Below, piece by piece: positions 1 through 12,740 of a stretch of DNA of 64,000 nucleotides (within the stretch, counting starts at the first letter, position 1; every line of letters starts with the position of its first letter). Origin of the DNA: Alphaproteobacteria bacterium (GTDB taxonomy: Bacteria > Pseudomonadota > Alphaproteobacteria > MPNO01 > UBA830); contig OZ251539.1 of the NCBI GenBank assembly GCA_965243135.1, positions 5,312,001-5,376,000 of the forward strand, in the 5' to 3' direction. The notes beneath the pieces are model-generated. The model did not search any database. It saw only the letters and a list, made by a program, of their open reading frames with translations, and had not been told where the DNA came from. The translations under genes and the position numbers were made by a program.

Positions 1-1
1 G

Positions 2-1414
2 GCGCTCGGCCTGCTCGCGCAGGATCTTTTGCCAGTCGGCCGCCTCGAATCCCCGCTCCGTCGTCTCGGTGCCGAACAGGCAATCGAAAAACCGTTCATC
101 TACGGCGCGGTCATACCTATCCGTGACCGTGTTTGCGCTGCTATCCTGAAAATCCGGATTCTCCGGCCCTTGCAGATAGACGAGCGCGGCTCTCCGGAGC
201 ACCTTCCGCGCCTCGCCAGCATGGTCAACCATCTTCTTCGAGAGCATTGCAAGCGGCGTCGGCTCATCGTCATCGTCCGGGTCGGATTCTGCAGTCAACT
301 GCGCAGCGATCGAATACGGCAACGGAATCACCCGCTCGTGCAGGCCCTCCGTCTTGCCCCGCCCGCGAACCATGACGGCCATGTGGATTTCCGAATCCTG
401 GTCGACCTCCACGTTTAGATCCTTTAACGCAAGCGGCGGCAGGAGCTCGCCGCGTTGCAGCAGGATCCTTTGGGCCAAGCGATAATCGAAGCCGCCGGCG
501 CCGACGGTCAGTGCGGACGCGCCCTCTTTGGTCCGATCGACAGGAACCCACGGATCGGCCAGGTTCCCATTCAGTGCTTGGGCGTTCACCCTCGCGTGCT
601 CCGATGGCCTGCCGACCGCGCGAAGCCGCGCGTCCTGACCGACCTTTAGTCGAACGCGGCGGCAGACCTCGATGAAGTAGGGGTCAAGTTCGTCGAGGCT
701 TATCTGTCCGTCGTTGTCCCACGGCTTGAGCCAGGTGAGCGCCAAACCATCTCGTCTTCGGAAGAGACTGTCCCCGGCCCGTCTGAGCACGTCATCCCTT
801 CGGGCGAGCAGCATGCGGCTGGCACGGCAAACGCGCGGCCCCCAGCGCGGCCCCGGTCGCCGATCCACCAAAACCCGGCTGGAAAAGCCACCGTTCATGC
901 GCGCAATACCGTAGTTTTTGGGACCAGAGTAGCCCTGAGTTGTCTGCATGGTCAGCAAGGCGTAAAGCCAATGGTGGGGTGCGCCTCCGGTCGCCTGCGC
1001 CTGTTTGCGATCATGGTTCTTGGCCGTTACCGGAACGTCGAGCATATCCGGCGTGCGGGCGCATTCGTTGAAGCTTCCGATGCATGTTGTCGGCGGCTGC
1101 AGGAACGCTGGTTTCGTTGGGTCGGAGACGGCGAGACTCCACGCCGTGGCGACGCATCTGGGAGTCAGCGCGGCGATCAGGCTGTGCCACTCGTCCGCCT
1201 CCGTCGGCAGGGTCTCCCGGCTCCCGTTGTGCAAGGCGACCGCCCCGAGCTGCGCAAGGAACTGATACCAAGCCTGCGCCTGATGCGCAGCGAGACCGTG
1301 GAAGGAATCGATGGCATCGCCGACGAGCCCGGCGTAGAGCATCGGCAAGGTTACGGAATCGCCGTTGCCGTCTCGAACAACGGGGATTATGGAACAAGTC
1401 AGCAGGTCGTGCAT
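2..1414 (-). CDS. cas8e: Type I-E Cascade large subunit Cas8e/Cse1 (CasA), 3' end runs off the window
   Basis: Absent from the ORF track, consistent with no stop codon in the window. Manual translation from ATG 1414 gives MHDLLTCSIIPV...HQAQAWYQFLAQLG...PAFLQPP...LDVPVTAKNHDRK...GYSGPKNYGIARMNGG, typical Cse1 motifs. Downstream of cas3 on the same strand. Confidence 0.85.
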   Translation of the reverse strand, partial: MHDLLTCSIIPVVRDGNGDSVTLPMLYAGLVGDAIDSFHGLAAHQAQAWYQFLAQLGAVALHNGSRETLPTEADEWHSLIAALTPRCVATAWSLAVSDPTKPAFLQPPTTCIGSFNECARTPDMLDVPVTAKNHDRKQAQATGGAPHHWLYALLTMQTTQGYSGPKNYGIARMNGGFSSRVLVDRRPGPRWGPRVCRASRMLLARRDDVLRRAGDSLFRRRDGLALTWLKPWDNDGQISLDELDPYFIEVCRRVRLKVGQDARLRAVGRPSEHARVNAQALNGNLADPWVPVDRTKEGASALTVGAGGFDYRLAQRILLQRGELLPPLALKDLNVEVDQDSEIHMAVMVRGRGKTEGLHERVIPLPYSIAAQLTAESDPDDDDEPTPLAMLSKKMVDHAGEARKVLRRAALVYLQGPENPDFQDSSANTVTDRYDRAVDERFFDCLFGTETTERGFEAADWQKILREQAER

Positions 1415-1530
1415 GGCTCGGTGCTCTTAAGGGTGGTCGGTCGCTTGATGGCCGGAAAGATGGCGGCCCGCATGCGCCGCCTTGCCATGAGTCGGGCAGG
1501 TCGCTGCGATAATGAACAAGTCGCCATCAT
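1399..1530 (-). CDS. Putative 43-aa leader or toxin peptide (MMATCSLSQRPARLMARRRMRAAIFPAIKRPTTLKSTEPCTTC)
   Basis: Strong SD AAGGAG (1544-1539) 8 nt before ATG-ATG. The ORF overlaps the cas8e start by 16 nt. Confidence 0.4.
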   Translation of the reverse strand: MMATCSLSQRPARLMARRRMRAAIFPAIKRPTTLKSTEPCTTC

Positions 1531-1602
1531 TGACAAATCTCCTTCTGGTTGCAGGTTTCGCGGCAGCGTCCTTACCGCCCAGCATACATGCCTGAGGGAA
1601 AA

Positions 1603-1642
1603 ATTATAACCTGTCATTATACCTGTTAAGAAAAATTTTTTT
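1603..1642 (-). promoter_or_regulatory. Putative promoter toward cas8e and protospacer of the mini-array
   Basis: Two TATAAT boxes on the minus strand (1621-1616, 1608-1603) within a direct repeat ACAGGT(T)ATAAT. On the + strand, AAC (1608-1610) followed by CTGTCATTATACCTGT matches the spacer 5' half. Confidence 0.6.
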
Positions 1643-1643
1643 G

Positions 1644-1672
1644 TTGACCGCGAACCGACGGTGAGATATTCT
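1644..1672 (+). promoter_or_regulatory. Sigma70-type promoter for the mini-array
   Basis: TTGACC-N17-TATTCT with an upstream A/T tract (1631-1642). Predicted start is about 1679, at the base of the repeat-1 hairpin. Confidence 0.65.
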
Positions 1673-1673
1673 G

Positions 1674-1763
1674 GCCTGCCCCGGCCTCTCGGGGATGAAC
1701 CGCTGACGTTATAGCTGTCCATGCAGCCGTTGGTGCTTCCCCCGCATGTGCGGGGACTTGTGG
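1674..1763 (+). CRISPR. Degenerate single-spacer type I-E mini-array (CreR/CreA-like)
   Basis: Repeat 1 GCCTGCCCCGGCCTCTCGGGGATGAACCG (1674-1702), spacer CTGACGTTATAGCTGTCCATGCAGCCGTTGGT (32 nt, 1703-1734), repeat 2 GCTTCCCCCGCATGTGCGGGGACTTGTGG (1735-1763). Both align without gaps to the 29-nt I-E repeat pattern GTGTTCCCCGCnnnnGCGGGGATRAACCG. Period is 61 bp. Confidence 0.85.
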
Positions 1764-1790
1764 AACGCGTAGAGAGCAGGTCGGGAACCA

Positions 1791-4373
1791 TCAATCGTCG
1801 ACTCTTGCCAAGCCCAGACGATCATATAGGTAACGGTGTGCGCCCATCCGGAAGCGAATTTCGCCGTCGGATGCAGAGATTTCCGACGGTTCGGCATCGA
1901 GGGGCAACTCGTTGACCATCCATCCCGGCAGCGTAAACTCCCGAACCCGTGCGCCGAAGGGGCCATGCAGGGGCTCAGGCAGTTCGATTCTACGGTCGTC
2001 CAATCCCAACCGCGTCATGATCGAGCGGTCGTCCTGCGGACAATTTGCGAGCAGAGATTCGAGCCAGTCGAGCAGTACCGAGCGCGCTGTCATGCCCTCG
2101 CCGAGCGCCGCGCCGAGCGCTGTCTCCAAGTGCGCGTCCCACGGCGGGCCGAGCTCTCTCGCGAGTTCGCACAGGCTTTCACCATGCGTCGCGGCCTCGA
2201 CCAGCGCGCGATTGTCGTCCGGGATGTGAATGGCGCCACGTTGCCTCAACCATCGCTCCGTCGCCAACACGCCGATCATGTTTCGGTAAACCCGGCCGAG
2301 GCCCATCGGCACTTGCCCGCGAACCTCGCCCTTCGCGTTGACATATTTGACCAGTTCCTCCGCAGTTGGCGCCAGCACCTCGACCGTCGGCGTCTCGAAG
2401 CCGATTGGGCGGGAGAGAACGTGACGGTGCAACCGGCCGATGCGTTGCAGCAGCACGTCGCCCGGCGCGATGTCCGTAATCAGCCGGTCGGCGCATATGT
2501 CGAGCGATTGCTCCGCCGTCTGCGTGGTCACGGCGACGATGCCAGCTCGAGATTCCTTCCCGAACGCGCGTTCCAGAACCTTATCCAGCTGCCGCCGGTC
2601 TTTCGGCGCGTAGCGACTGTGGTGCGGTGTGGCTACACCGTTGCAACGGAGCAGCGGCGCGCCGATGTCTTCCAATTGCCGAAAGGTATCTTGGGCGTCA
2701 CGCACGGTGTTGCGGATGAACAGCACGGCAGCGCCGTTCTCCGCCTGCCGTTTGACTTCCGCCAAGGCCGAACCGAGCGCCCCGTGATCAAGCAGCCGGA
2801 CGCTCACTCGCTTCTCCCGGCCGTCTCTGGGAAGAGGCCGCAACCCCTCGCCCGTTCGTTGAACGGCCGGGTAGGGCACTGCGGCGGCTTCCGCAAGGGT
2901 TGGCGACTCATGTTTTTCCACCCGTGCGCCGGATGCCAGAAAGCGCAGGCGCGCTACTGCGCCCAATGTCGCCGACATCAGCAGCGCATGGCCGCCGGCG
3001 GCCGAATGCTGATCGAGCACATTGCGCAGAATCTCGGTCATATAGGCGTCCGAGGCGTGCACCTCGTCGATGATCAACAGCAGGCGCAGCATCGGGCTGG
3101 AGCGGAGATGCGCGTGCCTCACCTGCAAACCGCCGAGCAGCAACTGGTCCACTGTCCCGACCATCGCTGCGCCGCTGAGATACCGTTTCGGGCGTTCCAC
3201 GGCCCATGCGCGGTCGACGTCCGTCTCGTCGGGCCAGAGCACCTTGGCCTGTTCCGGCAGGATCCGGCCCTCTTCGGCGTCGACTCGCAGATAGCCAGGA
3301 ACGGCCAACCCCACCGGCGGCGCCTCGTGGCCGAACCATCTTTGCAAGATTTCCGCGATCCGTCGGTGGATCTGCACGGCCGCCGCGCGGGTCGGCAGCG
3401 CGAAATAGAAGCCTTCCACCTCGCCAGCCCGGAACAGCCGAAGGAAATGCAGCACCGCGGCTTCGGTCTTTCCAGATCCGGTTTCCGCTTCCAGGGTCAC
3501 GACCTGCCCGTTCTTGGGCAGCGACGCGTTCCGCAGCGCCGCTTGCGCCGGCCGCGGCGTCGGCAGGTCCGGGAAGAGATCGGCGAAGGCGGTGGGGACC
3601 GTTGTTGCCGCTCGCCGCGCAACGCTCGAATCGAGCCAACGGCTGCGCAGCAGGTTGGCGGCCGCCATGCGTGCCCACGGAATCCGCTCGTTGCCGGTCG
3701 GTGCGCCTTGATGGGGAAACATAAAAACGCTCTGGTCCGAGCCGAGCCAGTCTGCGAGCGTGATCAGGCCAGCCAAAGCATGCATGAAGCGCGGCTCGGA
3801 CGGCAAAGTCGCCGCGGCTTCGTTGAACGCCAGAGGGAACATGGCTTTGAGAGCGTTCGCCGTTTCGGCGAGCGCCGACATGGGCGAATAGCCGTTCCGT
3901 TCGTTCCAGAGGCTCGGGTCCGGCCGGGCGCCGCCGTACGGCAAGCTTCCGTGATGGGCGAGCACGGCGTTCCACCAGGTAGCCTCGTCCTCTTCGTTGG
4001 CGAACCAGCACTTCCAGTCCCTTCTACGCAGGGCCTTGCGAACGCCTTTTGACAGCGGGCCTGTCGACGAATCGCAGACGATGGACCAGATCGGACCGAT
4101 ATGTCCGGCGTCCGGCTTTTCCCGGTGCAGCTTTGCCTGGAAACCATGATTGACTTTGCCAGCGTCGTGCAAACCGATGAAGAAGCCCGTTCTCTCGATA
4201 TCAATGACGTTGAGTCGACGTTTCGCCAACGCCTCCAGTCTGCGCCGAATGGTCGCAACGTTCATCAGCCCCTCGGCGACAGCGGCGACGTCGATGCAGT
4301 GATCGATCAGCTCGAGGAAAAGGGAAGAATCCGTCTCCGACTCTCGTACCGATTTGGCCCAGGCAACGCTCAT
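1791..4373 (-). CDS. cas3: CRISPR-associated HD nuclease/SF2 helicase Cas3 (type I-E)
   Basis: WAK, HCIDVAAV, LHDAGK, LAHHG and LADWLGS (HD domain); AETGSGKTE, DEVH, MSAT and QRIGRLHRH (helicase). GAGGG RBS before ATG 4373. Confidence 0.95.
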   Translation of the reverse strand: MSVAWAKSVRESETDSSLFLELIDHCIDVAAVAEGLMNVATIRRRLEALAKRRLNVIDIERTGFFIGLHDAGKVNHGFQAKLHREKPDAGHIGPIWSIVCDSSTGPLSKGVRKALRRRDWKCWFANEEDEATWWNAVLAHHGSLPYGGARPDPSLWNERNGYSPMSALAETANALKAMFPLAFNEAAATLPSEPRFMHALAGLITLADWLGSDQSVFMFPHQGAPTGNERIPWARMAAANLLRSRWLDSSVARRAATTVPTAFADLFPDLPTPRPAQAALRNASLPKNGQVVTLEAETGSGKTEAAVLHFLRLFRAGEVEGFYFALPTRAAAVQIHRRIAEILQRWFGHEAPPVGLAVPGYLRVDAEEGRILPEQAKVLWPDETDVDRAWAVERPKRYLSGAAMVGTVDQLLLGGLQVRHAHLRSSPMLRLLLIIDEVHASDAYMTEILRNVLDQHSAAGGHALLMSATLGAVARLRFLASGARVEKHESPTLAEAAAVPYPAVQRTGEGLRPLPRDGREKRVSVRLLDHGALGSALAEVKRQAENGAAVLFIRNTVRDAQDTFRQLEDIGAPLLRCNGVATPHHSRYAPKDRRQLDKVLERAFGKESRAGIVAVTTQTAEQSLDICADRLITDIAPGDVLLQRIGRLHRHVLSRPIGFETPTVEVLAPTAEELVKYVNAKGEVRGQVPMGLGRVYRNMIGVLATERWLRQRGAIHIPDDNRALVEAATHGESLCELARELGPPWDAHLETALGAALGEGMTARSVLLDWLESLLANCPQDDRSIMTRLGLDDRRIELPEPLHGPFGARVREFTLPGWMVNELPLDAEPSEISASDGEIRFRMGAHRYLYDRLGLARVDD

Positions 4374-4519
4374 TTTCAAAATCCCTCAACTCATTCGGAG
4401 CGTGCACCTTAGCGCGTATTTCACTGGATCCAATCTGGCGGAGGCGTTTGCGACGCGCCATTATTGTCAGCTATCCATCCGGTCGGGCGCCCCGCAATTC
4501 AGCTGGCCGCCCGCCGACA

Positions 4520-4700
4520 GATTCGCAAGGGTCTCGCAGAAGGTCTCGAGCAGGACCGGACGCAATGCGTAGCGGCGCTCCCCATAGTCGGGCAGTCGTG
4601 ATTCGATCAGCGCGAGGATATGGGGACGGGAGGTTGTCGATCCGAATTCAGGGCAGGGCTTGGTGTCGTTGATTGCCAGCGGCATGTTGCGGCAGCGGCT
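4520..4700 (-). pseudogene. DUF4338-type gene fragment
   Basis: Encodes HILALIESRLPDYGERRYALRPVLLETFCE, close to HILALVERCLPDDWDRRYALRPVLLETFCE in 40223-41110. Confidence 0.75.
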
Positions 4701-5114
4701 CCCGGTCGAGATTGTCCGGCTGACCCCTGCGCCGGGATCGGAGGCGGATACTTGGAAGATAGCCCGCACCGAGCGTAGCTCTATTTTTTGCCGACCCCGC
4801 CGCTGAAAGCGTCCCTCGCAGGCTCGACGGCAACCTCAGGCAGCACGGGAACCTCCAAGAAGTTCCATGCCGCCGGATCAGCGCCAGGAAGTCCAAGCTT
4901 TTGGGTAACCACATGATTTAGTGGAATTTCTTCACCGGAAAGACCAGCATGTGGTCTTCTCCGACCAAGCAGGTAGACCAGATCTGCTACCTAAAATTAT
5001 GTCAATAAAGGGCTTTTATTGGAAGAAAAAATTTGCCGCAGATTGTCGACACCGTCGGGTTGACCGGAAAGCCGTATTCGGCGAAATTGAATCTCTCGAA
5101 GGAACAACAACACC

Positions 5115-5333
5115 ATGAACTCAGACGGAAACGCGACCCAGACTTCGAAAAATGCTGGCAGGAACATTTCGGCCGCACCTTCGATTGTCTTGCTCAATCG
5201 AAGGCTCGGCACCTCGCCCGCTCTCCGGATGTTGACGCCGTCCGAAGTCGCCTTGCTGCGGCAGTGCGCGAAGGAAGCTTCCGAGATTGCTGGCGAGGTC
5301 CTTGCGAACGAAGGCGGCACGTCGGAAACTTGA
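5115..5333 (+). CDS. Small hypothetical protein (72 aa, MLTPSEVALLRQ helix)
   Basis: AAGGA upstream and ATGA overlap with the preceding short ORF. Confidence 0.4.
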   Translation: MNSDGNATQTSKNAGRNISAAPSIVLLNRRLGTSPALRMLTPSEVALLRQCAKEASEIAGEVLANEGGTSET

Positions 5334-5348
5334 CCCGTCTTCAGCACC

Positions 5349-5556
5349 GTAAGCGTTCGCTGCCGGGGGGACGAAAAAATTTCGTCTGGGGACTGGACAT
5401 CCGGTCCTGCTTGAGCCCTTCTGCGAAAGCCCCCGCTTCACGGGCGCCCGCTACCGCGCAGCCGGCCCGGGTCGGCAAACACAGGGCCGCAGCGGGCTCG
5501 ACGTGAAAAACGCGCTGCCGGTCAAGGAAGCAGGTTCCCGGGTAGCGAACGCTTAC
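5349..5556. mobile_element. 208-bp MITE-like internally deleted element with IS66-like terminal inverted repeats
   Basis: Left end GTAAGCGTTCGCTGCC, right end (reverse complement) GTAAGCGTTCGCTACC. Interior 5401-5527 is homologous to 40903-41043 (3' part of the DUF4338 gene). No target duplication seen. Confidence 0.75.
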
Positions 5557-5780
5557 CGTTGTTCTTCCGGCGCTTGACTGGCGGCAACAACCTGACCTCG
5601 TGACCGAGCTTCGCGATCTTTCGGCTCCAGTGGCGCAGCGCGGGCTGCGCACCTCGGCTGTTGCTTCGGGAAGTGCGACACTTGGCCGAGGGTCCGGCGA
5701 AACGCGACAAACCCGTCCGCTCGGGTGCCAACTCCGCTTCGCCGAGTCGATCCGCTAACCTGTTCCGTCCTCTCCTCGAT
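5557..5780 (-). pseudogene. IS110-family transposase remnant
   Basis: Encodes RHWSRKIAKLGHEVRLLPPVKRRKNN, resembling the IS110 HYWARE..LGHEVRL.PP..VK.KND segment. Cut by the element at 5349-5556. Confidence 0.7.
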
Positions 5781-6552
5781 ATGTTGTGGTTTGGTCTGAC
5801 GGTGCCAACGCGATGCCTCGGGAGGACGAAGCTCCCGAATTTTGTAACAAACTGGCGCTCTCCCCGATTCGCCTCCGCGCTATGCGCTCCGGCCAGGGAG
5901 AGCCTATCCGCCGGAAAAAAGGTGGTTGATGAGGTACAGGGCCTCATCGCGGTTGACAGGGGGGAAGCCTTATGTTACGTTCAGGGACACTCATCTAGGC
6001 ATAACCCAATGAAAAATATAACTTATTTGCCGCATGTGGAGCGTTAGACTGCATGGGAAAATTTTTCACCTATAGTGTTGACATCGGCGAAATAAACCTG
6101 AAACCTGACAATCGCTATCTCGGAGGACCGGAAAATGGAAGCATTCATGGAACGCACCGGGCAGCGCTATAGCCCCCCAATCGACCGGGCGCACGCGACG
6201 TTTGGCATCGTGGCGCTCTGGCGTTTTTCCGACTCGCGCCGGTAGAAGCCGGCAGACGGCCCACAGCAGGGGTTGCCGACAATCACGCGATGTCGGCAAC
6301 GGGACGCTTGCCGCTGTTCGGTATGAAGGTGCGTGGGTCTGTGGGTCTTTCCTGGACGATGGCAACTGCAACCTACCGGCCTTCGAAGGCTTCTCCGGCT
6401 TCTGCAACAAGATCGGGAAACCGAAACCTTTCGTCGGAACCTGAACCCTTGAAATGCTGCCCTGCTATGTTGAGAGCGCGACATCGCAATCCAACATTGA
6501 TGCAGGGACGTTTTGCAGCGTGCGGTAAGCTGGAATGTAAGGAGATAATGCT

Positions 6553-7356
6553 ATGAACGCACCATCCTCTAATAATTTTGAAGAAATCAAGGCTAGGGTT
6601 GAAAAAATTTTCATTTCGATCTACAGTTTGTATTCGCCGATAGTCTGGATTGTCTTGGGAATTATCCTGTGCGTTGCGGTCTTGGTTTCTGCTCTTCGAT
6701 ACGATTATCCTGCGGATGGTATCGCGCTCGGCAGCGCTGCGTTTTTCGCATCTTGGTTGTCGGGTGCATGGTGCAACGAACGAAAGAGGACAAAAATCCG
6801 CAATAGTAGACCGCTTGATCCAAGACGCGTGGTTAGAATAGAGGAAGCTCAGATTGCGAGTGATCTTGTACCTCTTGTCAACAAGCTGTCGCTTGAGAAT
6901 AGCAAGCTACGGATTGTAGGATATGATGGCCAATATATTTTGGGGAGAAATAAAAGACTTTGGAGAAAATCTCTGTCCAAATGGTTGAAGGAAGGTCTTG
7001 ATGTCGAATACATCTTGGTGAATCCTTCTCCTGAGGTTATTGATTCCTTTAAGGAAATAAAGGAGAAAGAGGAAGTAGAAGGCGTTAGATTGAAGCTATT
7101 CGTTTTCGAACGTTCCGACGCCAGTGGAACGACTGAATGGGAGGAGTTCAAGACATTTCATCCAACTTTGTTTTATGGCGGAGACGGAACCAAAGCTATG
7201 TGGATAGAGGAGGATCATCCGCTGGGAAGTAGATTCGCTTATGGTGTAACCTATGTGCCGCCGGATGCAATGAACGAGGAGCAAAACAGCAAGTTCAAAA
7301 AGTACGAACGGATGATTGATTCTTCCAAAGGTCATTGTCGTGAAGTGGCAGCTTGA
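6553..7356 (+). CDS. Low-GC membrane-anchored hypothetical protein (2 TM plus alpha/beta domain, possibly PLD-like fold)
   Basis: 267-aa ORF, AAGGAG RBS, two N-terminal hydrophobic helices, visibly AT-richer than the flanks. Confidence 0.8.
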   Translation: MNAPSSNNFEEIKARVEKIFISIYSLYSPIVWIVLGIILCVAVLVSALRYDYPADGIALGSAAFFASWLSGAWCNERKRTKIRNSRPLDPRRVVRIEEAQIASDLVPLVNKLSLENSKLRIVGYDGQYILGRNKRLWRKSLSKWLKEGLDVEYILVNPSPEVIDSFKEIKEKEEVEGVRLKLFVFERSDASGTTEWEEFKTFHPTLFYGGDGTKAMWIEEDHPLGSRFAYGVTYVPPDAMNEEQNSKFKKYERMIDSSKGHCREVAA

Positions 7357-7760
7357 GCGAAGTAGGGGAACGCTGCGTTATGGAAAGCAATATAGCTACG
7401 TTTTTGGTGACGTGTTTTGTTGCAACTGGCATCATAACAGGGACAAGTCTGGTACTGGTGAATTCAGTGGGGAATTCGCTATACCGTAGAGAAGGCGGAA
7501 ATTATATTTTCAGTACGAAACAAGCGTCTAGGCTGAGAAACAAAATCTTGTATTACCCGAATACTGTCTTCTTTATGTACTTAGGGTTGGGGATTATTTT
7601 GGTGATGATGGCAATTTGCAACGAACTTGAGGTGTCGGATATCTGCAACGAAGTTGAGTGGGGAATGGCTTGTTTCTCCGCTCTTTATTTTATATGGATA
7701 TTGTACAATATTCGGGATTATTGCTCGGACGCTTTTTATGCCTTTGGCGAGGGAGGGTGA
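7353..7760 (+). CDS. Low-GC membrane protein (3 TM)
   Basis: 4-nt overlap with the previous gene (alternative ATG at 7380) and three hydrophobic segments. Confidence 0.7.
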   Translation: MSEVGERCVMESNIATFLVTCFVATGIITGTSLVLVNSVGNSLYRREGGNYIFSTKQASRLRNKILYYPNTVFFMYLGLGIILVMMAICNELEVSDICNEVEWGMACFSALYFIWILYNIRDYCSDAFYAFGEGG

Positions 7761-8377
7761 CAACTTCTGTCGATAGGACGAATGCGTGGCCATTCTGGAG
7801 TCAGGAAGGCTTCGGCGCGTCCTGAGCTTCCTGAACCCGGAGGGGCTCGCAAAACGCCGTTCGTTTCGTCGTTTCCATAGCCTCGACAAGCTTGCCGCTT
7901 CGTTGCCCTACGTCGCCGATCTCCGGGCGAGGAATCGGGGACAAACGATCTTCGCTCTCTTTCGGGAACGGATATCGGTTTTCGGCGGCCCGCTTGTAGC
8001 GCGGTCGCTGCTTTCGGGTCCGTCTGGACTTTCCAAATCGTGATGCCCATGTCTTCCGGCAAGGCATCGGGGCGTCGGCGGGAATTTTTTGCCGTTCCGC
8101 GGTCGGCAACCCGAAGTCCTGCAGGCTTGCACGGCGCCCGAATCTGCCGACGGTAAGCTGGAGCCGTCGGCCCCGTCGGGCTGCGCTCTCGAAGCCGGGC
8201 CGGTGCTGCAGCCGGCTCGGGCAATCCCGCGTTTGACGCGCACGGGGTGAGGGAACGCCGCTCCGTCCGCCGTTCCAGGCGTCGGCGAACGCCCGGCCCG
8301 GCGGTTCCGCCCTGTTCGCCTTGCCGATCCCGAGGCGCGGTGATAGGTTCCGGCGGCTTTTTCAGGGGTGCAGGCTC

Positions 8378-8665
8378 ATGTCCGTCGACCGCGAGACCGT
8401 CCTCCATATGGCGCGCCTGGCCCGCATCGAGTTGCCGGAAGCGGACCTCGACGCCCTGGCTGCGGAGCTTTCCGGAATCATCGGCTGGGTCGAGCAGCTC
8501 GAAGAGGTCGACACCGCGAACGTCGAGCCGATGACGGCGGCGGTCGGCGCCGAACTGCGCTGGCGCGCCGACGAGGTCACCGACGGCGGCATCCGGGATC
8601 GCGTCGTCGCCAACGCGCCGGAAGCCGGAAACGGCATGTTCGCCGTTCCGAAAGTCATCGAATAG
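8378..8665 (+). CDS. gatC: Asp/Glu-tRNA amidotransferase subunit C
   Basis: [17 protein letters not shown]...FAVPKVIE. Confidence 0.95.
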
Positions 8666-10134
8666 TGACCGAACTCGCCGGAACCGGCGTCGCCGGCGCG
8701 CGCCGCCTGCTCGGCGGGGGCGAAGCCTCGGCGCGCGAACTCGCCGAGGCCCATATCGTCCGCATGGAAGCGCGCCGCTCGCTCAACGCCTTCATCACGG
8801 AAACCCCCGAACGGGCGCTCGCCGACGCCGAAGCCTCCGACGTGCGGCGGGCGCGAGGCGACCCGCTCGGCCCGCTCGACGGCGTTCCGGTCGCGGTCAA
8901 GGACGTCTTCTGCACCGAGGGCGTCACGACCACCGCGGGTTCGCGCATCCTCGAAGGCTTCGTGCCGCCCTACGAAAGCGCGGTCACCGAGCGTCTCCGC
9001 GCCGCCGGCGCCGTTGTCCTCGGGAAGACCAACATGGACGAATTCGCCATGGGATCTTCCAACGAGACCAGCTGGTTCGGCGCCGCGCGAAATCCCTGGA
9101 GCCGCCGCGGCGACGACCGGCCGCTGGTCCCGGGAGGCTCCTCCGGCGGGTCCGCGGCGGCGGTCGCCGGCGGACTCTGCGCCGCCGCCGCGGGAACCGA
9201 CACCGGCGGGTCGATCCGCCAGCCCGCGGCCTTCTGCGGCGTCGTCGGCATGAAGCCCACCTACGGACGGTGCTCGCGCCGAGGCATCGTCGCCTTCGCC
9301 TCGTCGCTCGACCAGGCGGGCCCCATCGCCCGCAGCGTGCGCGACGCGGCGATCGTGCTGGGCGGCATGGCGGGGTTCGATCCCGGAGACTCCACCTCTG
9401 CGGACGTTCCGGCGCCGGATTTCGAGGCGGCGCTCGACGGCGGCGTGAAGGGGCTCAAAATCGGCGTCCCTGCGGAATACGCCGTCGAGGGGATGAACCC
9501 GGAGATCGCCGCGCTCTGGGAACGCGGCAGGGAATGGCTGGCGGCGGCGGGCGCCGAACCGGTCGACATCCGCCTGCCCCACACCCGCTTCGCCCTGCCG
9601 GCCTATTACATCGTCGCGCCGGCGGAAGCGTCGTCCAACCTGGCGCGCTACGACGGCGTCAGGTACGGGCTCCGCGAGAACGCGGCCGACGTCGCCGGAC
9701 TGTACGCGAAGACCCGCGCGGCCGGCTTCGGCGCGGAGGTCCGGCGGCGCATCCTGATCGGAACCTACGTCCTGTCGACCGGCTACTACGACGCCTATTA
9801 CCTGAAGGCGCAGAAGGTTCGGACGCTGATCGCCGGGGATTTCGCGGCGGCCTTCGAGAACTGCGACGCGATTCTGACGCCGACCACGCCGGGACCGGCC
9901 TTCGCGATGGGCGAGAAGTCGGACGATCCCGTCGCGATGTATCTGAACGACGTGCTGACGGTGCCGGCGTCCCTTGCGGGACTGCCCGCGATCTCCGTTC
10001 CGGCCGCATTGACCGGCGACGGGTTGCCGCTCGGCCTTCAGCTGATCGGCCGCGCTTTCGACGAGACGACCTTGTTCCGCGCCGCGCAGGCGCTCGAGGA
10101 GGCCGCCGGCTTCGACGCCCGGCCGGAGAAATGA
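8665..10134 (+). CDS. gatA: Glutamyl-tRNA amidotransferase subunit A
   Basis: Amidase signature [32 protein letters not shown] start overlaps the gatC stop. Confidence 0.97.
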
Positions 10135-10164
10135 CCCGGCGGCCGGCCCGCCGCGGGATCCGTC

Positions 10165-10467
10165 ATGGCGTTCGTCTGGTATTTTCTGATCCATGTCAGT
10201 CTCGGCCTCGTCGGCTGGAAGGTGTTCGCCTTCACCGGTCCGGGCGTTCTCGTCGCGGTCGCCGTCTGCGCCGGGGTGCAGGCGTGGCCGATGTACGAGA
10301 TATACCGCCTCAGCTGGCAAAAATTCGAAAGCGCGCGGCCGGCCCGCGGCGAGGCGCGCCTGCGGGAAACCCGCGCCTACTGGATCCGCATGGCCCGGCT
10401 TTACGTCTTCCGGGTCAGCGCCTTCTCGCTGCTGACGCTGTTCGTCGCATGGCTGATGCGGAGCTGA
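10165..10467 (+). CDS. Small membrane protein inside the gat operon
   Basis: 100-aa ORF with about three hydrophobic helices filling the gatA-gatB gap. Confidence 0.65.
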
Positions 10468-10495
10468 CGCCGCCCGCCCGCCCGGGGAACGAAAG

Positions 10496-11929
10496 ATGAT
10501 CCGGGGGAGAACGGGAGACTGGGAAGTCGTCGTCGGTCTGGAAGTGCATGCCCAGATCGCGTCGGAGTCCAAGCTCTTCTCCGGAGCGCCGACCGCGTTC
10601 GGCGGCGAGCCCAACGCGCAGGTCTCGTTGGTGGACGCGGCGATGCCCGGCATGCTTCCGGTGGTCAACGGGCGCGCCGTCGAGCTGGCGGTGCGCGCCG
10701 GGCTCGGCCTGAACGCCGAGATCAATCTCGTGTCGGTCTTCGACCGCAAGAATTACTTCTACCCCGATCTGCCGCAGGGCTATCAGATTTCGCAGTATCA
10801 CCGCCCGATCGTCGGAGCCGGCTGGATCGATCTCGACGGCGGCCGGCGGGTGGGCGTCGAGCGGCTGCATCTCGAGCAGGACGCGGGCAAGTCGGTTCAC
10901 GACCAAGATCCGCGGCGGACCCTGATCGACCTCAACCGGTCCGGCATTCCCCTGATGGAGATCGTGACCGCTCCCGACATGCGTTCCGGCGCGGAGGCGG
11001 CCGCCTGCGTGGCGAAGCTGCGTTCGATCCTGCGCTATCTCGGCGCCTGCGACGGCAACATGCAGGAGGGATCCCTGCGGGCCGACGTCAACGTGTCGAC
11101 GCGCCGTCTCGGCGACGCGCTCGGCACGCGCTGCGAGATCAAGAACGTGAATTCCGTCCGCTTCGTCCGGCTCGCGGCTGAGTTCGAGGCGCGCCGCCAG
11201 GTCGCGATTCTCGAGGACGGCGGCGTTGTCGAACAGGAAACCAGGCTGTTCGATCCCGACCGCGGCGAGACCCGGTCCATGCGCGTCAAGGAAGACGCCC
11301 ACGACTACCGGTACTTTCCCGATCCCGACTTGCCGCCGCTGGTGCTGGAACGGGAATGGGTCGAGGAAATCCGCGCCGCGTTGCCCGAACTGCCGGACGA
11401 GAAGAAGCGCCGCTTCGTCGAACGGTACGGGTTGAGCGCCGAGGACGCCGGCCTGCTCGCGGCGGAACGGGAAACGGCCGACTACTACGAGGCGGCGACG
11501 AAAGGGCGCGATCCCGCGGTCGCGGCGAACTGGGTGACGGGAACCCTGTTCGGCGCGCTCAACCGCGCCGGGGTCTCCGTCCGGGAAACGCCGGTCCCGC
11601 CCGAGCGCCTCGGCGCGCTGATCGACCTGGTGACCGACGGCACGGTGTCGAACCGCCTCGCGAAGGACGTGTTCGAGATCATGTTCGAGACCGGCGGCGA
11701 TCCGGCGCGGATCGTCGCGGAACGCGGCATGGTCCAGGTCAGCGACGCCGGCGCCATCGAGCAGGTCGTCGACGAAATCGTCGCCGGAGCGCCGGAACAG
11801 GCGGCGCAGTTCCGGGCGGGAAACGAAAAAGTGATCGGATGGTTCGTCGGTCAGGCGATGAAGGCGACCGGCGGCAAGGCCAATCCGAAGGTGGTGAACG
11901 GCATATTGCGGCGGAAGCTCGCGGGCTGA
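10496..11929 (+). CDS. gatB: Asp/Glu-tRNA amidotransferase subunit B
   Basis: [39 protein letters not shown]. Confidence 0.97.
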
Positions 11930-12014
11930 GAACGGACGGAATTCCGCCCGGCCGGGAAACGCGATAGATTGCCGTCTTGCGGACGCACGACAACCAACGC
12001 AGGGAAGCGCGAAC

Positions 12015-12740
12015 ATGCTCGACGTATACACGTGGCCCACGCCCAACGGGCACAAGGTGCACATCATGCTCCACGAGGCCGGACTGGAGCACAACATCGT
12101 TCCGGTCAACATCCAGGAAGGCGAGCAGTTCGCGCCGGATTTCCTGAAGATCAGCCCCAACAACAAGATGCCGGCGCTCGTCGATAGCGACGGGCCGGGC
12201 GGGCAGCCGATCTCCGTGTTCGAATCCGCGGCGATCCTTATCTATCTGGCGGAAAAGACCGGCCGGTTCCTGCCTCGCGACGGAAGCGGGCGCTACGACG
12301 TCCTGCAGTGGCTCATGTTCCAGATGGGATCCGTCGGACCGATGCTGGGACAGGCCCATCATTTCCACGCCTACGCCCCGGAACGCGTCGAACGCGGCAA
12401 GCTTCAGTACGGAATCGACCGCTACGTCAACGAAGCCAATCGAATCTACGGCGTCGTCGACCGGCGGCTCGCCGACAGGGAATGGATCGCGGCCGGCGAA
12501 TACACCATAGCCGACATGGCCATCATGCCGTGGCTTCGGGATCCGGCGAAGCAGGGAGTCGAGATTTCGGGATATCCCAACCTCCGGCGCTGGCGCGACC
12601 GGATATGGGAGCGCCCGGCGGTCGCCGCCGCCCTGGAAACGCTCAGCGATCGCCGCCGCAAGGACAACACGCACTCGGACAAGGCTTGGGAGATCATGTA
12701 CGGCAAGACCCAGGTCGGGCAGGGGCAGGCGGCGGAATAG
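12015..12740 (+). CDS. Glutathione S-transferase, YfcG/YghU-like
   Basis: TPNGHK, ISPNNKMPA, FESAAIL, QWLMFQM, YTIADMA. Confidence 0.9.
   Translation: MLDVYTWPTPNGHKVHIMLHEAGLEHNIVPVNIQEGEQFAPDFLKISPNNKMPALVDSDGPGGQPISVFESAAILIYLAEKTGRFLPRDGSGRYDVLQWLMFQMGSVGPMLGQAHHFHAYAPERVERGKLQYGIDRYVNEANRIYGVVDRRLADREWIAAGEYTIADMAIMPWLRDPAKQGVEISGYPNLRRWRDRIWERPAVAAALETLSDRRRKDNTHSDKAWEIMYGKTQVGQGQAAE

Follow-up and report, generated by a model that had tools for sequence, protein, structure and literature searches.

What does the short, strongly initiated open reading frame (ORF) in front of cas8e do in the type I-E CRISPR locus analysed here? The locus lies at the beginning of a window of 64,000 nucleotides (nt) from an alphaproteobacterial genome (contig OZ251539.1, positions 5,312,001 to 5,376,000 of the forward strand), in which a 43-codon ORF sits in the leader between cas3 and cas8e and overlaps the cas8e start. 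An initial annotation had proposed either a toxin, as RNA or as peptide, that makes the cell dependent on Cascade, or a translational-coupling leader. On present evidence an ordinary, non-toxin reading is more likely. Its most economical form, to which we assign a probability of about 40%, is that the leader ORF would be a translated frame, indifferent to its peptide, that throttles ribosomes and couples them into a cas8e gene poor in Shine-Dalgarno (SD) sequence. The elements concerned are the following.

2..1414, minus: cas8e (cse1), with its ATG at 1414-1412, running past the window start; 518 residues in the genome; Pfam CRISPR_Cse1, 8.3e-8
1399..1530, minus, stop included: 43-codon leader ORF with seven Arg and a 16-nt overlap with cas8e; no Pfam family, no homologue
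1415..1596, minus: 5' leader of the cas8e messenger RNA (mRNA), its start placed near 1596 from the -10 box
1424..1428, minus: AAGAG, the sole SD-like stretch before cas8e, 9 nt before its ATG; duplex -2.1 to -2.5 kcal/mol
1462..1481, minus: hairpin of GGCGGC (1481-1476) and GCCGCC (1467-1462) inside the leader ORF, codons 17-23
1510..1521, minus: run of four very rare codons, ACT TGT TCA TTA (codons 4-7), found from codon usage
1539..1544, minus: SD sequence AAGGAG, 8 nt before the first ATG; anti-SD duplex -9.7 kcal/mol

The anatomy described by the initial annotation was recovered throughout. On the minus strand, AAGGAG (1544-1539) precedes ATGATG (1530-1525) by 8 nt, and the Arg-rich frame of 43 residues runs across the cas8e start to a TGA (1401-1399) 13 nt past the cas8e ATG. 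Duplex energies, computed against the anti-SD of the genome's own 16S tail, are -9.7 kcal/mol for the leader ORF compared to -2.1 kcal/mol for cas8e, whose SD had indeed been called weak. The predicted hairpin near 1462-1481 is present as well, the 42-nt segment around it folding at -17.5 kcal/mol. A search for AAGGAG-N5-10-ATG on both strands of the 6.1-Mb genome revealed 312 sites (2.6e-5 per nt), from which about 0.005 would be expected in 190 nt; 193 of the 312 head frames of at least 100 codons. The open frame itself is not significant, with a probability of about 0.3 for 43 codons at 65% G+C, estimated from base composition. An N-terminal extension of cas8e, or a frameshift into it, was considered as another explanation of the frame and ruled out, with a TAA standing in the cas8e frame 15 nt before the ATG.

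Further analysis of the frame revealed an unusual codon choice just after its start. Codon usage, taken from a proxy set of 570 long frames, gives 1.60, 0.58, 0.48 and 0.13 per 1000 codons for ACT, TGT, TCA and TTA. All four belong to the nine rarest codons, and no sense codon is rarer than TTA. Among all 12-nt windows, a fraction of 1.2e-4 consists of four-codon runs drawn from these nine, and among AT-rich ones the fraction is 1.8e-3. Among the 312 AAGGAG-ATG sites, a rare-codon run of at least three within the first 11 codons occurs once, in the leader ORF, and a run of two at five sites. All transfer RNAs (tRNAs) needed for codons 4-7 are present; tRNA-Leu(UAA) and tRNA-Ser(UGA) are single-copy genes, and ACU and UGU are decoded by the main Thr and Cys tRNAs.

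The transcript carrying this frame would start from a promoter that faces a degenerate mini-CRISPR in the 376-nt spacer between cas3 and cas8e.

1608..1629, plus: protospacer-like target (1611-1629) with AAC at the place of the protospacer-adjacent motif (PAM; 1608-1610), from a spacer pattern search
1644..1672, plus: predicted mini-CRISPR promoter TTGACC-17-TATTCT, from a consensus scan
1674-1702, 1703-1734 and 1735-1763, plus: PsiR1, the 32-nt PsiS and PsiR2 of the degenerate mini-CRISPR, divergent from cas8e, as compared with the 78-repeat I-E array
1791..4379, minus: cas3, the upstream gene of the type I-E operon, 862 residues; Pfam Cas3_HD 1.9e-28, Cas3-like_C_2 1.5e-26 and DEAD 2.4e-11

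Two degenerate repeats thus surround a spacer inside the cas locus, as in CreR and CreA. PsiR1 keeps the 5' handle, its handle end being one base off that of the array, and PsiR2, which begins as the array repeat does, keeps the hairpin. A spacer pattern in which positions 6, 12 and 18 (flipped out) were set to N, with up to two mismatches, was searched in the 64-kb window and in 100 shuffles; it matched itself and 1611-1629 alone in the window, and nothing in the 100 shuffles. Up to position 19, spacer and target match at 14 positions and differ at 4, 6, 12, 17 and 18, the mismatch at seed position 4 being a caveat. The target overlaps two TATAAT boxes (1621-1616 and 1608-1603) of the minus-strand cas8e promoter, so that the targeted promoter annotated about 190 nt upstream of cas8e is where it had been placed, and the partial complementarity to this nearby promoter is flanked by the AAC. 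At the PAM -1 place of the array, the spacer base adjoining the handle, C is the most frequent base with 36 of 78 repeats, followed by G and T with 20 each and A with 2, which suggests that the last PAM base is rarely A and that the AAC beside the target fits.

Strain variation around the target agrees with this layout. The target variants of strains X4 and X7 lie at protospacer positions 6 and 12, two that stay unpaired in type I complexes, and a variant at position 17 turns the mismatch into a match. The stretch 1687-1768, which covers spacer, handle and PsiR2, has no listed strain difference, and both of its flanks are variable. Taken together, the spacer-pattern match, the overlap with the TATAAT boxes and the AAC flank indicate that the targeted promoter is real and that the mini-array is of the CreR/CreA kind; as judged from these sequence features, the promoter of the cas8e leader is a genuine target of it.

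We propose that the mRNA of the Cascade operon would be made from this promoter, repressed by its own product through the CreR-like CRISPR RNA (crRNA). The strong ribosome-binding site (RBS) and AUG in the leader would then load ribosomes onto a frame whose peptide is indifferent, and the four very rare codons just after the start would slow them. Moving on, the ribosomes would open up the GC-rich leader and stop 13 nt beyond the AUG of cas8e, by which a limited ribosome flow would be handed to a start nearly without an SD, combining translational coupling with a throttle. Translation from 1530, the transcription start, the coupling and the throttling are what we infer here from the observed layout. 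In line with such a scheme, the leader ORF has a strong RBS of its own and ends over the next start, and the next RBS is both poor and structured: the predicted cost of opening it is 10.7 kcal/mol, compared to 11.3 kcal/mol for the leader ORF, which has a strong SD to offset it. A scan of 1300-1900 for terminator-like sites found none, hence none that would separate the leader ORF from cas8e.

That the peptide itself is unimportant is suggested by strains X5 and X7; the strain variants were drawn from contigs of four DNA runs. The X5 and X7 sequences are the listed differences applied to the window, with up to four X7 differences and some X5 differences lying outside the list. The differences listed for X7 in the leader at 1399-1600 comprise 15 substitutions (7.4%), one inserted nucleotide and a deletion of net 3 nt. 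Neither X5 nor X7 alters the SD, the first ATG or the distance between them, and the frame stays open in both, with 43 and 42 codons. The second ATG is ACG in both, which corrects the initial annotation on one point: ATGATG is not a conserved unit. The rare-codon run is likewise retained, with TCA changed to CCA, another rare codon. Within the leader ORF of X7, seven of the eight changed bases are non-synonymous and one residue is deleted. Searches with the peptide returned no homologue among 1.84 billion representatives and no Pfam family. Since the peptide changes freely between strains and has neither homologue nor family, it is apparently under no selection as a protein. In an observation apart from these, record 3 of the X4 contigs is a relative about 80% identical in which 710 nt (1203-1914, from the cas8e start to the cas3 end) are replaced by 472 nt, about the size expected if the mini-array and the promoter are missing, as they are in L002.

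The hairpin fares no better across strains. Its energy falls from -17.5 kcal/mol in the window to -12.1 in X5 and -7.4 in X7, and because of this decay we regard it, from the sequences compared, as being under no selection as a structure.

A scan with Cas8e over one genome per species gave 16 loci, of which two are close, L002 (81% Cas8e identity) and L017 (76%). Neither the mini-array nor the upstream promoter is present in either of them. In L002 the start signals persist as AAGGAGG, the 8-nt spacing and ATG, with the second ATG replaced by ATA, and the frame is cut to four codons; in L017 both the SD-ATG and the leader frame are absent. The last ~75 nt of the leader can be aligned among the three, and AAGAG (1424-1428) is invariant. 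The cas8e SD duplex is -2.1 to -2.5 kcal/mol in all three, compared to -6 to -12 kcal/mol in 12 of the 13 other loci, which makes the weak cas8e SD specific to this clade; L010 comes into that range if a GTG 6 nt upstream of its assigned coordinate is taken as the start, and L015, whose start is mis-set, has no score. The window and L002 share all nine SD and ATG bases, for which the probability at the leader's overall identity is about 0.02 (0.65^9).

Among the other mini-array loci, an SD-ATG of comparable strength occurs in L004 alone (-15.0 kcal/mol, 14 codons, without a rare-codon run), so that no pattern emerges. In L004 (3740-3960; Cas8e 62% identical), about 260 nt of leader precede cas8e, and in them a perfect 10-bp hairpin is followed by this SD, the strongest found, with its 14-codon frame, and then by a second GC hairpin. 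L003, a close relative of L004, keeps the mini-array but has neither an L004-type leader nor the AT-rich promoter. A motif of 9 nt, TGTATGCTG with A or G next and G behind it, stands at 1581-1590 of the window and recurs about 265 nt before cas8e in L004 and about 135 nt before it in L010. The TGTATGCTG motif adjoins the CreR-controlled promoters of these three distantly related loci, its position relative to the promoter differing, and in L010 a near reverse-complement copy lies across the promoter.

Searches for more distant copies added little. The cas3-cas8e leader is single-copy in the genome, and Rfam at permissive thresholds gave no match in positions 1-6000. The leader DNA had no match in 40 relatives of its own genome, one 95-nt match, over the mini-array part, in 60 relatives of the L004 genome, and 60 relatives of the L002 genome yielded nothing beyond the genome of L017 and a weak match in coding sequence. 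Against plasmids, blastn with the leader found nothing and tblastn with Cas8e found six records, all below 40% identity and not used. A metagenome scan with the Cas8e alignment returned two loci, one of the L006 type and one 36% identical, neither of them informative.

What speaks for coupling is the difference in SD strength between the leader ORF and cas8e, the rarity of the start motif, the 16-nt overlap, the clade-specific weak SD of cas8e and the outlying rare-codon run. Several observations weigh against it. The arrangement is retained in X5 and X7, which keep the frame, and is lost in L002 with its four codons and in L017 with none; both relatives share the weak cas8e SD yet lack the full leader frame, therefore coupling is not required in the clade, and it is for this reason that we go no higher than the figure given above. 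In X7 the leader changes faster than both of its flanks (1.4-2.2% at the cas3 end and 4.5% at the cas8e start). Between the window and L002, 100 of 153 aligned leader positions are identical (65%), with 26 gap columns besides, compared to 69% at the fourfold-degenerate sites of cas8e; since the leader is no more alike than these sites, it looks neutral and is, as a whole, not visibly constrained. A consensus fold of the three loci gave no covariation support (term +1.11), neither the hairpin nor the long-range stems persist, and the fold of the whole leader is ordinary (z = -0.44, with 68 of 200 shuffles folding as well or better). Moreover, the SD and codon-run statistics were chosen post hoc, after inspection of the sequence, and the SD-ATG block can also be read as a promoter or palindrome. 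The coupling leader of the initial annotation is therefore carried by the overlap, the SD-poor cas8e and the structured RBS in its own genome, and it is not conserved in L002 and L017. The conservation in relatives that the annotation had raised is likewise divided: SD, first ATG and spacing are kept in X5, X7 and L002, whereas the frame shrinks to four codons in L002 and SD and frame are both absent from L017.

Of the other explanations, the one that survives best, though we consider it somewhat unlikely, takes the block as a relic or a product of chance, in which the SD-ATG is a remnant of earlier states of the intergenic region without a function today, for example as a degenerate copy of the cas8e start, and the frame stays open owing to the 65% G+C. 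Leader divergence at or beyond the neutral level is what such a relic would give, as are a frame cut to four codons in L002 and missing in L017, and a 43-codon frame of unremarkable probability (about 0.3) at this composition. A 9-mer, GACTTGTTC, occurs twice on the minus strand, at 1514-1522 (codons 3-6 of the leader ORF) and at 1392-1400 (codons 5-8 of cas8e), sharing the frame and lying about equally far from the respective ATG, and L002 has a parallel ACC at both corresponding places. The GACTTGTTC repeat may be the trace of an old duplication of the cas8e start, and such a common origin would explain the rare codons, codons 6-7 of cas8e being ACT TGT. The likeness of the leader ORF start to the cas8e 5' end is not significant, however, in local alignment (p = 0.09 in the window, 0.45 in L002 and 1.0 in L017). 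A relic also sits poorly with SD and ATG bases kept 9/9 together with their spacing against a 65% background, and with a rare-codon run unique among 312 comparable sites.

The second explanation, distinctly less probable, is a CreT-like RNA toxin in the cas8e leader. Loss or blockage of Cascade would derepress the promoter, the frame would tie up ribosomes or the scarce UCA and UUA tRNAs, and growth would stop; the single mini-CRISPR would then serve at once as CreR, tuning Cascade, and as CreA, and the toxin would be a type I-E RNA fused to the cas8e mRNA, a composite that we hold to be just as doubtful. The gene order does resemble CreTA as far as it is described, with a mini-array, a partial promoter target flanked by a PAM, an SD, an AUG and a GC hairpin placed between cas3 and the first effector gene. 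The strong SD and AUG, the outlier run of four of the nine rarest codons, the rarest included, kept in X5 and X7, and the single-copy genes for tRNA-Leu(UAA) and tRNA-Ser(UGA) point the same way. Rare codons heading a longer ORF might also work, according to the available text of Cheng et al. 2021 (PMC8501985), and the CreTA1 module of Pseudomonas aeruginosa is said to have promoters in common with neighbouring cas genes.

The details of the frame tell a different story from that of a CreT. Neither a pair of identical rare codons in succession nor a Pro-Pro-stop occurs in it, and it runs for 43 codons rather than five or six, so that the absence of the AUG-rare codon-stop layout, remarked in the initial annotation, stands. 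ACU and UGU are read by the main tRNAs, the hairpin lies within the frame and decays between strains, and no terminator was found that would make the leader a separate small RNA. A toxin on the autoregulated cas8e transcript would, in addition, be produced whenever Cascade is. Over the 9.5 kb examined, L002 shows no mini-array, although its SD and ATG and a promoter-like site are there, and the whole arrangement occurs in one independent lineage only. These points lower the chance that the leader is a CreT; that it works like one is possible. Of the RNA toxin first suggested, the strong start, the place and the rare-codon run hold, whereas identical rare codons, a mini-ORF, a kept hairpin and a terminator are missing.

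Next comes the reading of the SD-ATG block as a DNA or antisense element, whether an internal promoter for a short-leader mRNA, a palindromic protein-binding site GTCG-N7-CGAC or an antisense terminator, which we rate as improbable. The sequence concerned is:

1509..1536, minus: promoter-like TTGTCA-16-CATTAT over the leader-ORF start (9/12 positions), with an imperfect palindrome GTCA-N7-CGAC (1534-1520)

L002 has a promoter-like match too, TTGACC-16-GATGAT on the sense strand, and must have some promoter, the upstream one being deleted there. The palindrome arms GTCG/CGAC are present in L002, X5 and X7, and a 7-bp hairpin followed by a T-rich stretch, resembling a terminator, lies on the other strand in L002. 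Yet the promoter matches are weak (9/12 positions), and the -35 of the window is worse in X5 and X7 (TTGTCG). In the window the palindrome is imperfect, and the opposite strand offers a poor T tract. An element of this kind would also leave the exact SD and its exact spacing unexplained.

Finally, that the 43-residue Arg-rich peptide is itself the toxin, as the initial annotation had allowed, is hardly credible: a short basic peptide behind a strong SD is what one might look for, but it shows neither the conserved sequence, nor the hydrophobic helix, nor the family expected of a small-protein toxin of type I-like or CreP-like kind, with no homologue in the 1.84 billion representatives, no Pfam family, no membrane-spanning hydrophobic stretch on inspection of the sequence, neutral-looking changes including a one-residue deletion between near-identical strains, four codons in L002 and no frame in L017.

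The surroundings of the locus are those of a large CRISPR region. Beyond cas8e the rest of the type I-E operon continues in the genome, followed on the same strand by the 78-repeat array, which lies outside the window (genome 5302436-5307200) and has 28-nt repeats and 33-nt spacers. Two more large CRISPR arrays, whose repeats differ (115 and 46 copies), are found within 50 kb of the I-E locus, at genome positions 5265242 and 5284179, and a small orphan array of three or four I-E-like repeats occurs elsewhere, at 4812996. Upstream of cas3, six long frames (window 4400-12200) matched no Pfam family at an E value of 0.001 or below.

Mini-CRISPRs of the CreR type are frequent among type I-E loci. 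In the available text of 10.1101/2023.03.10.532045, creR genes are termed 'standalone' until a toxin is found, and the authors who named CreR left open whether such 'standalone' ones hide a toxin. Literature searches returned no type I-E CreT, nor does one figure among the three classes set out in the available text of 10.64898/2026.06.02.729485. The present locus is a concrete candidate, with a strong SD-AUG and an outlier rare-codon run on a transcript under CreR control. If it proves toxic, CreTA would be extended to type I-E, with a toxin that shares its mRNA with an effector gene; if not, it would be an example of possible translational throttling of the first, least abundant Cascade subunit.

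Coupled or attenuating leader ORFs of bacterial operons are well-initiated short frames placed before a poor or structured RBS, whose stop lies over the next start and whose peptide is unimportant. Compared to these, the arrangement described here is not kept in the nearest relatives and has no evident sensing logic.

The haloarchaeal type I-B CreT is described as combining a strong SD and an AUG or GUG start with a mini-ORF, in which one rare codon is used twice in succession, and with a stem-loop (PMC8501985). From that description, it shares with the present leader the strong SD, the AUG, the early rare codons, a GC-rich stem-loop and a promoter repressed by a Cascade-bound crRNA-like RNA. 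The initiation signals in particular are of this kind, with a duplex of -9.7 kcal/mol, a spacing of 8 nt and an AUG. By contrast, the haloarchaeal RNA carries AGA AGA or AUA AUA in a mini-ORF some six codons long, has its hairpin, needed for activity, downstream and is a separate small RNA, whereas the leader in the window has four different rare codons, no identical pair, a frame of 43 codons and a hairpin inside that frame rather than a stable stem-loop behind it, and runs into cas8e.

The type I-F CreT1 and CreT2 of P. aeruginosa are reported to consist of a 15-nt frame that closes with Pro-Pro-stop, preceded by an SD and followed by a GC hairpin (Wang et al., 10.64898/2026.06.02.729485). 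As reported there, they resemble the leader in being bacterial, in lying between cas2-3 (cas3 here) and the first effector gene, 3' of the CreA target, and in joining an SD, a short frame and a GC palindrome. They differ in their Pro-Pro-stop mini-ORF: the 43 codons of the leader ORF contain no consecutive Pro, and the 15-nt frame of L002 contains no Pro at all. The third of the three classes of CRISPR-repressed toxins in the same account is a small protein in Acinetobacter.

The closest counterparts are the CreR and mini-array systems. CreR-guided autorepression of type I-E cas operons is described for the casA promoter of Salmonella enterica (Liu et al., 10.1101/2023.03.10.532045), and mini-arrays between cas3 and cas8 have been surveyed (Shmakov et al., 10.1101/2023.03.03.530964). 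Compared to these, the present locus adds a strong SD-ATG frame in the leader, a leader ORF being absent from the available text of the CreR papers, and has AAC at the place of the PAM. In the rest the descriptions agree: a degenerate two-repeat array in the cas3-cas8e spacer, a conserved 5' handle, a partial match to a promoter flanked by a PAM and a target some 140-200 bp before the first Cascade gene.

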